Origin: an uncultured Candidatus Bathyarchaeia archaeon
GTDB lineage: Archaea; Thermoproteota; Bathyarchaeia; Bathyarchaeales; Bathycorpusculaceae
DNA: 17,203 nucleotides
Assembly: GCA_964450845.1 (NCBI GenBank)
Contig: CAYVGZ010000028.1
Span: 1 to 17,203, forward strand
Reading direction: 5' to 3'
Below the pieces are notes generated by a model that made no database searches, was not told the DNA's origin, and saw nothing but the letters and a program-made list of their open reading frames with translations. A program made the translations under genes and the position numbers. This document shows, one piece after another, positions 5,626 through 10,237 of the stretch; position 1 is the first letter of the stretch; every line of letters begins with the position of its first letter.

Positions 5626-7053
5626 TTATACCTTTCGCCATCTGACACCTTCAGGTGTATCTTCAACGATTATGCCCATCTGCTTAAGCTCTTCCCTAAT
5701 TTTGTCCGCTGCCTTCCAATCTTTGGCTTTTCTTGCTTCTTCTCTTTTTTGAATAAGTTCTTCAGCCTCTTTAGACAGTTTCTCTTCCTTCTCAACCTCG
5801 CCAATCACGCCAAGAACCTTGTCAAACCTCATCATCAACTCATAAACTTCTTGAGCCTCTTCCTTACTAAGCATATTGTCGTCCACAAGTTTGTTCACAT
5901 CTCTTACAAAGTCAAACAGCGCAGCCAACGCCACACTTATGTTAAGGTCATCATCCATAGCTCCTTCAAAATCCTTTCGCACGCGATTAATTAGATTCCT
6001 TATCTCTTCTCCGCAACCTTTTCCATTAGCTTTCACCAGTTTGTACACAAAGTTAGTTAGTCGATCCACTGCACTCTTCGCAGCTTCTAACCCTTTGAAA
6101 GTGAAGTTTAATTGTTGCCGATAATGAGTTGCCATAAGTAAGTACCGAATAGCCTTCGGATCATAACCTTTTGCTGTTAAATCCTTCAATGTAAAACAGT
6201 TGCCAAGACTCTTATGCATGGCTCTTCCTTCAACAAGTAGATGCTCATTATGAAGCCAGTAATCTGCGAATTTCTTACCCGTCGCTGCCTCGCTTTGTGC
6301 AATTTCATTTTCATGATGAGGAAACATATTGTCCACTCCGCCACTATGGATGTCTATGGTTTCACCTAAATACTTCATAGCCATCGCTGAACACTCAATA
6401 TGCCAACCAGGATAGCCCTTTTCACACCACGGCGATTTCCAATTCATAATGTGTCTAGGATCATTTATCCACAGCGCAAAATCAAACTGATTCTTCTTAT
6501 CCGAATTATACTCTACCTTTCCACCTGCCCCAAGTTTTAACTTCTCAATCGTGTTACCAGAGAATTTCCCATAGTCTTCAAATTTTGCAACATCAAAATA
6601 GACAGACCCATTCACAACATAAGCATAGCCTTTCTCTACCAATTTTTTCACTAGCTCAATCATTTCATTAATATGATCTGTAGCCCTAGGCCTAACCATT
6701 GGTTCTTCAAAATTCATTACCTTAGCATCTTCCAAAAACGCCTTAATATAAAAATCAGCCACAGCCCAAGGATCCTTCTTTTCCCTCATCACCGCAGCTT
6801 CCATTTTATCCTCTCCTATATCGACATCCTCAAACATGTGCCCAACATCAGTAAAATTCATAACCTGCTTAACCGTGAAGCCCTTGTATTCCAGATATCT
6901 CCTTAAAACATCTGCAAACGTAAATGCACGCAAATTTCCTATAGTTGCATAATCATAAACAGTTAAGCCACAGTTATACATCGTTACAATACCCTTCTTC
7001 AACGGTTTGAATATCTCTTTCTTCTTGGAAAACGTATTATACAACTTGAGCAT
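5626..7053 (-). CDS. cysS: Cysteine--tRNA ligase
   Basis: [38 protein letters not shown]-terminal ADKIREEL; HIGH and KMSKS appear as TIGN and AMHKS. Confidence 0.95.
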
Positions 7054-7247
7054 CTAACCACCCCACTTCGATGTCCCTTCCATTACCATTGAACCGTGTT
7101 AACCACGTAAAGTATCTATTTATCTAAGTTATACTTTTCTTCTAAATCAAGTGCCAAAAACCAAAATTTTGCCTAAAATTCCCACATTGAACAACATAAA
7201 ACAAAACAATAAGACCAACAAAAGAGTCTTGCGCTGAAACAAATAAA

Positions 7248-7403
7248 CTAATCATATTTTTTTAATTTTATCATTTCTCTAAAATTTTTCAGATCTTGAG
7301 CTACTTGCTTTAGAAAATGAAGTTCCTCCATTGTCCTTTCGAATTTTGCAAATTCCTCTCGAATCTTCTTCACGAAACGCTCATTTTCATCCATTCCTCG
7401 CAT
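7248..7403 (-). CDS. Small helical hypothetical protein (51 aa); may extend to GTG 7453 across a 1-nt frameshift
   Basis: Manual translation MRGMDENERFVKKIREEFAKFERTMEELHFLKQVAQDLKNFREMIKLKKYD; below the ORF-track cutoff; amphipathic pattern. Confidence 0.45.
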   Translation of the reverse strand: MRGMDENERFVKKIREEFAKFERTMEELHFLKQVAQDLKNFREMIKLKKYD

Positions 7404-7453
7404 CCTCACGTATGACTCAAATGGAGGGCTTTCATCGTTTTTTGGCTAACCAC

Positions 7454-7550
7454 GCAACCACTTCCGTCATCGAGGAGAAAGGAGAAGGCTTCGAAAACGG
7501 AAAAACCGATTCTTGGTTGCTTGAAGCTTAGCCTTCAACCTTAGCCCTCC
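7454..7550 (-). ncRNA. Candidate structured leader RNA (strand inferred)
   Basis: Nested stems GCAACCA/TGGTTGC, TTCCGT/ACGGAA and TCGA/TCGA, plus adjacent TTGAAG/CTTCAA; TTTTTATA box near 7585-7592. Confidence 0.45.
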
Positions 7551-7633
7551 ACACTGCATCGTAAGACTTAAGACATCATCCGCCTATAAAAACGTTGCTG
7601 AATAAGGCGAATGCACAGACATTAAGGTGAAGT

Positions 7634-8188
7634 TTAGCCTATTGCTAAGATGCCTTCTAAAATGTTTTTTTCGGGAATGCCGAGTTGTTTTGAGAGCCAT
7701 GTTTTTAAGAGTGGGGTTTGTTTTGGGAGTTCGCCGCTGTAGGTTATGATTTGGTTGTCTTTTAGTGCGTCTACTTGGAAGGTTTTTTCGGTTTCTCTGT
7801 ATAGGAAGGATAGTGTTTGGGCTTGGTTGGCTAGTGTTTGAAAGTCTTCCCATTGTTTGCAGCGTAAAATGACGGGGGGTCCTTTCACTTCTTTAGCTTG
7901 TGATGTTTCAGGTCTTTGTTCTTGTGTTAATTGTGTTAGCACTGGGGGAGCTTCGTGTGAAGCTGACAAATATGTGATTAGGTTTGCTATTTCATTCTGT
8001 AATGTTGTTAGTCTCTCTTCAACTTTCTCTATTTTTCCGCTTAATACACCAGTATCGCCTAGTCTTTCGGTTATGCCACCTAACTCACTTATTAATTTGT
8101 CCAAGTCCTTTTCATGCTCTTTTAAAACATTCACTATAAAGTCTAGAGCTTCTAAGGCATCGTTTTTCGATGGAGGTTTCTTGGACAT
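7634..8188 (-). CDS. Hypothetical protein: N-terminal coiled coil, Pro/Gln linker, alpha/beta C-terminal domain
   Basis: 184-aa ORF, SD GAGG upstream, heptad-like N-terminal half, TTTATAAA box near 8228-8235. Confidence 0.8.
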   Translation of the reverse strand: MSKKPPSKNDALEALDFIVNVLKEHEKDLDKLISELGGITERLGDTGVLSGKIEKVEERLTTLQNEIANLITYLSASHEAPPVLTQLTQEQRPETSQAKEVKGPPVILRCKQWEDFQTLANQAQTLSFLYRETEKTFQVDALKDNQIITYSGELPKQTPLLKTWLSKQLGIPEKNILEGILAIG

Positions 8189-8526
8189 TGCTTTTTTCCT
8201 CTTTCTTCAACCTATTAATGTCCGTTCTTTATAAATAAACGTAGCGAATCCTCAAAACATATCCAGACGAAGACGTATCCATATTAATTGAGAATCATGT
8301 GTGGTATTTTTGAATTAAGCACATGTTTCATCTTTCGCTTTTCGGCGCTCCACGGAAAATCAAACTCTCCTTATAGGCTGTAGATTTGTCGCAGTGCGTA
8401 ATTTTTGTTTTGTCAGACAATAGATGTTTGGTGCAGTTTTGTTGTCGGAGAGGTTAAGATTTGATGAGAGGGTTAAAATATCGGTTTTAAAATGAGTTAG
8501 ATACCCATTAAAAAGTGGGCTTTGCC

Positions 8527-10159: not shown

Positions 10160-10237
10160 GGGCGGGTAGATCAGTTTGGTATGATCGCCACGTTGGCATC
10201 GTGGAGGCCGCGGGTTCAAATCCCGCCCCGTCCACCA
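10160..10237 (+). tRNA. tRNA-Ala(GGC), CCA encoded, no intron
   Basis: Acceptor GGGCGGG/CCCGTCC with G3:U70, D stem GATC/GATC, anticodon stem CCACG/CGTGG with GGC at 10195-10197, T arm GCGGG-TTCAAAT-CCCGC. Confidence 0.97.

Follow-up and report, generated by a model that had tools for sequence, protein, structure and literature searches.

A conserved structured RNA of Bathyarchaeia, its candidate protein partner, and copies of its head hairpin in tailed viruses

Introduction

Small RNAs that operate with a dedicated protein include the Y RNAs of Ro60 and of the bacterial Rsr-Y RNA modules, the signal recognition particle (SRP) Alu RNA with SRP9/14, and the CsrB and RsmZ RNAs of CsrA, to which can be added the autoregulatory leaders bound by ribosomal proteins or L7Ae and the C/D-box and H/ACA small RNAs (sRNAs), which are L7Ae K-turn RNAs. 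Here we describe a structured RNA of ~160 nt, encoded at 7404–7566 on the minus strand of a 17,203-nt stretch (the window) of contig CAYVGZ010000028.1, from the assembly of an uncultured Candidatus Bathyarchaeia archaeon (GCA_964450845.1). Bathyarchaeia are among the most abundant archaea of sediments and soils and are essentially uncultured. Full-text searches found no papers on Bathyarchaeia non-coding RNAs, and no RNA specific to this lineage was found described in the literature; we rate the element as a new RNA family, whatever its mechanism. A preliminary description of the window, made from the sequence, had flagged a switch-like hairpin at this site. Its observation was partly confirmed and its interpretation partly supported: a conserved, functional structured RNA does lie there.

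The RNA shares with Y RNAs a length within ~100–160 nt, ends paired into a long stem, a location beside the gene of the presumed partner, and related RNAs in phages (here, tailed viruses). Unlike the Y RNAs, it has no TROVE/Ro60 protein beside it (the neighbor being a coiled-coil/eL38-like protein instead), contains no tRNA-like module, matches no Rfam Y RNA model, and has its conservation in the apical loop, not in a bulged helix. The resemblance to the SRP Alu RNA lies in the candidate partner, whose C-terminal domain would fall in the SRP9 α-β fold class; a dimer of such domains on an RNA folded back with its loop paired would be reminiscent of the Alu domain. However, the RNA lacks the U-turn and UGUAAU motifs of Alu, the protein is not homologous in sequence to SRP9/14, and the archaeal SRP RNA (RF01857) was rejected as an identity for the locus since the true SRP RNA of the genome is on another contig (C83; Archaea_SRP, 158 bits). 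As in CsrB/RsmZ and the autoregulatory leaders, a repeated loop motif could bind a dimeric RNA-binding protein, and a junction motif appears in the 5′ untranslated region (UTR) of the partner mRNA in a subset of loci, but the repeated motif is the pyrimidine-rich UUCUCC (twice) and not GGA, each RNA has a single head, and the lineage is archaeal. By analogy, the new RNA would work most like these partner-encoded small RNAs (Y RNA/Rsr, SRP Alu/SRP9/14, and CsrB-type decoys) while being a member of none of the families.

Results

A Nearly Invariant Loop within a Covarying Rod

The intergenic region of the window was used in a blastn search of 40 related genomes, in which the loop sequence was not a selection criterion. 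This unselected set contained relatives with 66 to 88% DNA identity, from ~20 genomes that represent different genera. The conserved sequence extends from the upstream open reading frame (ORF) across the RNA and stops exactly at the stop codon of a small downstream ORF (7248). Within it, ~34 nt (UUUUCGAAGCCUUCUCCUUUCUCCUCGAUGACGG) are identical in all 20 unselected relatives, and the CUUAAGUCUUACGAUG block around the predicted transcription start is also conserved in their alignment. The exact 23-nt sequence of the loop (23-mer) is present in at least 119 species-representative genomes, which with two exceptions are titled Bathyarchaeia or Bathyarchaeota, and the core GC(C/U)UUCUCCUUUCUC(C/U) is kept in the most divergent members, with a few substitutions in one (L176). 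The two exceptions (L028, DASPPK010000101.1, and L046, DASPTR010000067.1) are contigs filed as Acidobacteriota metagenome-assembled genomes (Acidiferrales, Acidoferrum). Both carry the RNA, the gene for a 184-aa protein that adjoins it, and glnA, and they are probably mis-binned archaeal contigs.

Covariation was assessed with two alignments. In A1, 125 distinct copies were aligned, a rod structure was set by hand on the row of the window, and a covariance model (R1) was built; in A2, 98 matches were realigned with R1, and pair statistics were calculated on 92 distinct sequences. Standard pairs occupied 85% of the A2 cells, changes on both sides were seen in 25 of 30 pairs, and 247 cells were compensatory. 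None of 500 shuffles reached the observed value, and sliding the 3′ partners by one to three columns left 28–44% pairing. Helices P1, P2, P2b, and P3 all covary, so that covariation, which the preliminary description had named as a check, is seen in the lower and middle stems; there is little variation in P4. The many G-U pairs assign the structure to the transcribed strand, as opposed to duplex DNA. As A2 was fitted to the hand-set structure, its pair counts are somewhat biased toward that structure. RNAalifold applied to the raw MAFFT alignment returned only the invariant AGGUUGA:UCG..GCCU pairing between junction and loop, with no covariation, and the helices emerged only after the hand-set structure and covariance-model realignment had been introduced.

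The covariance model matches the window RNA at 7411–7568 with 148 bits. With the boundaries indicated by conservation (7569–7401), the minimum free energy (MFE) was −60.1 kcal/mol (z −3.94), which none of 200 shuffles equaled, and the shorter segment 7550–7423 gave z −3.63. The 197-nt region originally flagged (7444–7640) had z −0.81, and 41 of 200 shuffles folded equally well; comparison with shuffles was thus unfavorable to that region and favorable to the conserved one. The MFE structure is a single rod with a conserved cap loop, in which P3, P4, P5, and the loop are enclosed by P2 (GGCUAA/UUAGCC; 7533–7528 with 7449–7444), by P1, and by an outer helix, P0. The RNA as delimited here (7404–7566) is supported by the covariance-model match, the MFE, and the compensatory changes together.

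P0 is seen in the MFE fold, where the 5′ strand CUUACGAUG (7557–7565) pairs with CAUACGUGAGG (7414–7404). Its sequence varies by subfamily, reading CUUACG…/…CGUGAGG in the window and UUGUUAGUG/CACUAACAA in the subfamily termed type B. In a permutation test, 5′ and 3′ flanks from the same locus paired at −8.39 kcal/mol and permuted flanks at −7.60 kcal/mol, and none of 300 permutations was as good. The 5′ strand of P1, UGGAGGGCU (7543–7551), pairs with AGCCCUCCA (7430–7422); each of its six pairs has two-sided changes, and 92% of cells form pairs. The 5′ strands of P2 (GGCUAA), P2b (CUUC), and P3 (GCAACCA) occupy 7514–7533 and pair with 7460–7444, with two-sided changes in 15 of 16 pairs. Between P1 and P2, the 5′ strand contains the junction AAGGUUGAAGGC (7531–7542), whose positions G27–G35 are invariant or >90% conserved in A1, and the 3′ strand contains a conserved A-rich junction, AAAAAACGAUGAA (7431–7443; family consensus GCCAAMAMAC...). 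The head hairpin (7462–7502) consists of P4 (UUCCGU/ACGGAA) around UUUUCGAAGCCUUCUCCUUUCUCCUCGAUG. Its apical loop, UUUUCGAAGCCUUCUCCUUUCUCCUC, is pyrimidine-rich and G-poor, contains two tandem YUUCUCC heptads, and is the same in all 20 unselected relatives.

Much of the hairpin first proposed is recovered in this structure. GCAACCA (7520–7514) pairs with UGGUUGC (7460–7454) and UUCCGU (7502–7497) with ACGGAA (7467–7462) on the minus strand, where they had been placed, and the 67-nt hairpin delimited by them (7520–7454) is real but forms only the upper half of the ~160-nt rod, the enclosing helices P1, P2, and P0 having been overlooked, as had the archaeal origin of the genome, which is shown by its Archaea_SRP RNA. 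The UCGA/UCGA stem (7494–7491 and 7473–7470) is present in the sequence and closes a 17-nt loop (7490–7474); its 5′ side is invariant and the changes on its 3′ side are uncompensated (UCAG, UCAA, UCGU). The second, abutting hairpin (UUGAAG/CUUCAA) is missing even in the closest relative, at 88% identity, and in the majority of the others. GTG 7453, taken earlier as a start codon, sits within P2b, and no conserved ORF begins there; the supposed Shine-Dalgarno sequence, GGAAGUGG, is helix sequence. A start region is indeed covered by pairing, but it is that of AUG 7403, and the helix responsible is P0 and not the hairpin originally described. Of four reported copies of GGCTAA, three are on the minus strand (7639, 7546, 7533) and the fourth is present only as the complement, TTAGCC (7449).

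A pairing alternative to the rod was also recognized correctly. GAAGGCU (7536–7530), in the junction before P2, is the exact complement of AGCCUUC (7490–7484) in the loop, and the complementarity of GAAGGC (7536–7531) to GCCUUC (7489–7484) is maintained across the family. Two compensatory events (G-C to A-U) were found where the loop reads GCUUUC (L153/L154 and L177), and A·C mismatches were found in L041, L057, L084, and L118. The GGC of the junction doubles as part of P2, with which this conserved alternative pairing competes.

The box TTTTTATA noted upstream (7592–7585) was found and is the promoter element of the RNA. The TATA box, UUUUUAUA (7585–7592, minus strand), is preceded by an A-rich stretch resembling the B recognition element (BRE), and (U)UUUAUA recurs at a constant distance in the majority both of the 20 unselected loci and of the others. 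Transcription is predicted to start at ~7569–7562.

Distribution and Gene Context

The covariance model was run over 151 Bathyarchaeia genomes, of which 23 matched, all in the order to which the window belongs. By family, matches were obtained in 18 of 20 genomes of f1, the single genome of f2, and, weakly, three of four genomes of f6; there was none in ~110 genomes of other orders. A divergent form of the RNA, with the loop CGCUUUCUCCUUUCUCUUUGAUGA, was found in family f7, where the 184-aa gene is adjacent too. Of 139 loci, 130 have this gene upstream, with its end ~135 nt ahead of the loop. The downstream genes vary, cysS being next in 54 of the 139 loci and glnA nearby in 30. In the 27 type-B loci, conservation ceases right after the 3′ strand of P0, and the RNA stands alone with no conserved downstream gene. 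Some genomes contain a second, unlinked copy of the RNA; within four mismatches, none was found in the window's own genome. The RNA is thus primarily a stand-alone gene, being kept alone in type-B loci and as unlinked paralog copies. A search of complete genomes with a 16-mer gave extra matches that were mostly unrelated pyrimidine-rich DNA.

One type-B subgroup (L035, L063, L082, L089, L091, L108, L109, L112, and L130) has a second conserved non-coding block (…CGCCAAACCUUAUAUC…GGUUGAUUUGUUUGGCUGUUGACGUUUCAAGAACAAAGAAACCGAAGCUUCC) ~120–200 nt past the RNA. This block may comprise a promoter and another small RNA or a leader.

The Head Hairpin in Tailed Viruses

The exact 23-mer was also found in eight IMG/VR contigs (L186–L193). 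These share only the head (P4 and loop) with the cellular RNA; the stems below it are unrelated in sequence, and in each virus they are long and self-complementary. Each copy is found in a short space separating co-directional genes. Terminase large subunit, portal, major head, and tape-measure proteins are encoded on these contigs, which are those of tailed viruses whose hosts are presumably Bathyarchaeia. The occurrence of the head alone on unrelated viral stems marks it as a portable module and argues for its recognition by a host factor.

Two host-genome loci (L042 and L044) likewise have the head hairpin alone, on different stems. RHH and Zn-ribbon genes neighbor one and AbrB and PIN-like genes the other, and these copies may sit in integrated mobile elements.

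The Neighboring 184-aa Protein

The gene directly upstream of the RNA (7634–8188, minus strand) encodes a 184-aa protein considered here as the candidate partner. An AlphaFold2 model built with 43 homologs (pLDDT 77) contains a helix at residues 8–76, a disordered linker, and a β-α-β-β-β-α-β domain at residues 106–178. Residues 107–180 align to 65–70 residues, the full length, of eL38 from ~40 ribosome structures, with Z scores of 5.3–7.2 and an rmsd of ~3 Å, where a Z score under 8 may reflect no more than a common arrangement. The C-terminal domain aligns less closely to SRP9 (Z 5.1–5.3), with Foldseek probabilities of 0.99–1.0 but E values of 0.005–0.05; the scores for both proteins are moderate. 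eL38 and SRP9 are RNA-binding proteins. The long N-terminal helix yields coiled-coil matches. The protein has no named family in Pfam, NCBIfam, PHROGs, PADLOC, Protein Data Bank sequence profiles, or the ESM Atlas, its relatives in the last being Bathyarchaeota hypothetical proteins; the PADLOC defense-system models likewise gave no match. At E values up to 1, PF01781 appeared neither among the 25 families matched by a majority of the 43 members nor in the first member's own table.

The junction motif of the RNA, AGGUUGAAG, recurs at the 5′ end of the 184-aa mRNA in ~17–27 of 86 loci. Upstream of the gene, its promoter, GAUUCGCUACGUUUAUUUAUA (8195–8250, minus strand), is strongly conserved and is followed by a purine-rich 5′ UTR that often begins with UAGGUUGAAG, the J1/2 junction motif of the RNA. 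The N-terminal coiled-coil motif ALEALDFIVNVLKEHEKDLD recurs by itself in several 180- to 230-aa paralogs per genome in other families of the class.

The RNA and the protein co-occur well but not perfectly. This imperfection and several further points weigh against the proposed partnership and are gathered in the Discussion.

The 51-aa ORF Downstream

A conserved ORF of 51 aa (…EEFxKFExTMEELxxLKxVAxDLKxYRxMIKLKKYD) is encoded at 7248–7403 on the minus strand. P0 covers the 11 nt just before its AUG at 7403, placing its start region at the 3′ strand of that helix, and the 3′ end of the RNA abuts the ORF in the genomes that have this arrangement (type A), where the ORF starts at a fixed distance after the RNA (+91 to +106). 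The family comprises 59 distinct homologs of 47–62 aa, with the stop codon at a fixed distance and synonymous third-position changes. The protein was not found in three type-B genomes searched. It has no Pfam, NCBIfam, or PADLOC family, its one PADLOC match (E 0.004) is at chance level, and PHROGs, Protein Data Bank sequence profiles, and the ESM Atlas gave it no named family either. The micro-protein is helical and ends in KLKKYD.

Comparison with Known RNA Classes

The locus was compared with Rfam 15 (4,227 models), and no family matched the element. The only match in the window at the gathering threshold was a tRNA (10160–10234); within 7000–8400, scanned to E values of 10, nothing was better than E 1.2, and all matches were far under gathering. 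k-mer similarity of the RNA to rRNA or SRP RNA did not exceed chance.

Archaeal RNase P RNA (RF00373) had no match at the locus. It was found in 19 of 21 genomes (20 relatives and the window's own, the latter without a match), and in the ten of these that also bear the new RNA it lies on another contig in nine and ~15 kb away on the same contig in one (G004). An identity as a riboswitch or other cis-acting leader was disfavored by the lack of a constant place in the 5′ UTR of a coherent set of downstream genes, and a T-box leader was rejected because the loop, AGCCUUCUCCUUUCUCC, contains neither UGC nor UGU and cysS is absent from most loci. As an archaeal small RNA with, in the window's genome, CGAUGA and UUGA boxes resembling C and D boxes, the element invited comparison with C/D-box and H/ACA sRNAs. 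A K-turn or C/D-box RNA was rejected because the GA dinucleotides required on both strands are lost in type B, which reads GCCAACACACAUAACC opposite GGUUGAAGG; the head is also variable on its 3′ side (GAUA, AAUAA, AGUGA). For an H/ACA sRNA, the lower stem is followed by GUG, GCG, or UUG and not by ACA, and the internal loop has 12 nt on one side and 2 nt on the other. Neither class has an Rfam match here. Targeting of rRNA by the loop was rejected too, the longest complements in the 16S and 23S rRNAs of two complete relatives being 11–13 nt, as for shuffled loops, and at non-conserved sites. The frame that begins at AUG 7559 (leaderless) or at the UUG in GGUUGAAGG is open in the window, but a coding reading was discarded because the AUG is ACG in many relatives and the indels are not multiples of three.

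Discussion

Taken together, the data are read here as identifying 7566–7404 (minus strand) as a previously undescribed, stable, structured non-coding RNA that is recognized by a protein, with the neighboring 184-aa protein as candidate partner, an interpretation in which we place as much belief as doubt. The RNA, which would be transcribed from its own BRE/TATA promoter, folds into a rod with paired 5′ and 3′ ends. Under this proposal, its head (P4 and loop) would be the module by which a host factor acting in trans recognizes it. The likeliest such factor is the 184-aa protein, which may form dimers or oligomers and could place one C-terminal domain on each heptad, giving a small ribonucleoprotein; a tandem-repeat loop fits a dimeric protein. 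Pairing of the junction GAAGGC with the loop GCCUUC would determine whether part of the head is masked or exposed. In type A, the transcript would run on into the 51-aa ORF, and P0 could act as a closed leader that limits translation of the ORF. Tailed viruses of Bathyarchaeia, which carry the head in late operons, may borrow or titrate the same host factor. More specifically, the RNA and the coiled-coil/eL38-like protein might constitute a lineage-specific ribonucleoprotein with the loop as its handle, and the viral copies might be decoys or tags that recruit it to late transcripts; this extension is unlikely as stated.

A number of observations weigh against this interpretation. Both the transcription of the RNA and its binding by a protein are predictions from sequence. 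Beyond the 20 blastn relatives and the loci collected with the covariance model or a protein profile, loci were gathered by the exact 23-mer, and their loop identity is therefore by construction. No sequence family ties the 184-aa protein to eL38 or SRP9, a fold Z score of ~7 falls in the range for which the comparison tool itself cautions that a match is possibly "only a common arrangement," and the canonical eL38 of the genome is encoded elsewhere (contig C46, 30.9 bits). Three RNA-positive genomes that are 95–97% complete (G124, G143, and G148), as well as the paralog copies, have no protein gene beside the RNA or genome-wide at E ≤ 0.001. Conversely, genus g38 has the protein but no detectable RNA, and in family f6 the RNA and protein genes are unlinked. 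The viral contigs encode no homolog of the 184-aa protein.

Other functions could be envisaged for so conserved a loop. The pyrimidine-rich sequence resembles an anti-Shine-Dalgarno, and the RNA could be a trans-acting antisense sRNA that pairs with purine-rich ribosome-binding sites (GGAGAA/GGAGAAAGG) of mRNAs, including that of the 184-aa gene, and controls their translation; the viral copies would act likewise on host mRNAs, in their favor or against them. Every fold leaves the G-poor loop single-stranded, the 3′ end of 16S rRNA in relatives is GGAUCACCUCCU, and the 184-aa 5′ UTR is 68% purine, with GGAGAA, the exact complement of the heptad, in 21 of 86 of these UTRs as compared to one of 59 for the small ORF and three of 32 for cysS. 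The predicted loop duplex is accordingly stronger with the 184-aa UTRs (−13.7 kcal/mol) than with those of the small ORF and cysS (−9.1 and −8.3 kcal/mol). However, shuffled versions of the same UTRs pair nearly as well (−13.3 kcal/mol), indicating an effect of composition, and the window's own 184-aa UTR has no GGAGAA. Across the genome, the best complements found are 14 nt long, at chance level (E 0.067 each), and seed pairing leaves ~30 invariant nucleotides, including UUUUCGAAGCC, unexplained. We consider an antisense role doubtful. A 5′ leader acting purely in cis on the 51-aa ORF and possibly cysS, whether as riboswitch, thermometer, or protein-responsive operator, as favored in the preliminary description, seems quite improbable. 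The fixed distance to the type-A start codon, with P0 over the nucleotides before AUG 7403, would suit it, as would the conserved alternative pairing, which could act as a switch, and in the viral contigs and L042 an ORF begins 79–122 nt past the motif. Against this, the RNA is retained in genomes that lack the small ORF (the 27 type-B loci) and as paralog copies, where cysS is missing as well, cysS being the next gene in fewer than half of all loci; the loop has no Cys codon, unlike a T-box specifier, and no riboswitch family was matched.

The consistent placement of the element in short gaps between same-strand genes might instead point to a signal for RNA processing, 3′-end formation, or stability, a hairpin read by a host nuclease or termination factor between co-directional genes. 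In L186 and L188 the upstream ORF ends 7–11 nt ahead of the motif, and U-rich runs follow some copies; these U-tracts are inconsistent, no known archaeal motif such as the bulge-helix-bulge is present, and a simple processing site would need neither its own promoter nor the conserved junction motifs of the host RNA, making such a role very unlikely. A DNA-level element, either a replication or priming stem-loop at the switch in GC skew or an att core common to viruses, is barely credible. The GC skew does change sign near 7000–8000, and the identity of virus and host over a 23–33-nt core, with unrelated sequence on either side, is att-like. Priming at the skew flip, as had been suggested, is unsupported, since many helices are held by G-U pairs, which would be A·C mismatches on the opposite strand, and the promoter is at a fixed distance. 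The viral flanks build compensating stems of their own, the viral copies lie within structural-gene modules, and no integrase was found among the ten flanking ORFs scanned. The change in skew coincides with two same-strand genes of differing composition, and the "skew flip" is the border between them. The coding strand of the 184-aa gene (7700–7900, minus strand) is strikingly A/C-rich, and cysS (5626–7053), on the same strand, has the opposite GC skew.

The analysis provides a well-supported RNA family and a covariance model that can be used for it, a candidate partner that belongs to no known family and has a fold resembling an RNA-binding domain, a new conserved micro-protein, and a base-for-base link between the loop and tailed viruses. 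A loop conserved in the manner of rRNA cores and copied by viruses points to a central host machine, and knowing the partner would give access to a new part of RNA biology in archaea. If the loop is a handle and the viral copies are decoys or tags, this would represent an RNA-mimicry arms race in a major uncultured archaeal group; to our knowledge, arms races of such a kind are known so far only for CRISPR repeats.

Some further observations concern the window and its relatives. The only RNA in the window recognized by Rfam and ARAGORN is a tRNA-Ala (GGC) at 10160–10237 on the plus strand. The 16S rRNA, 23S rRNA, and RNase P RNA were not found in the window's 93%-complete assembly, though relatives have them, which looks like an assembly gap and not biology. 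The 23–33 nt shared between cellular and viral copies of the head could help assign tailed viruses to Bathyarchaeia hosts.

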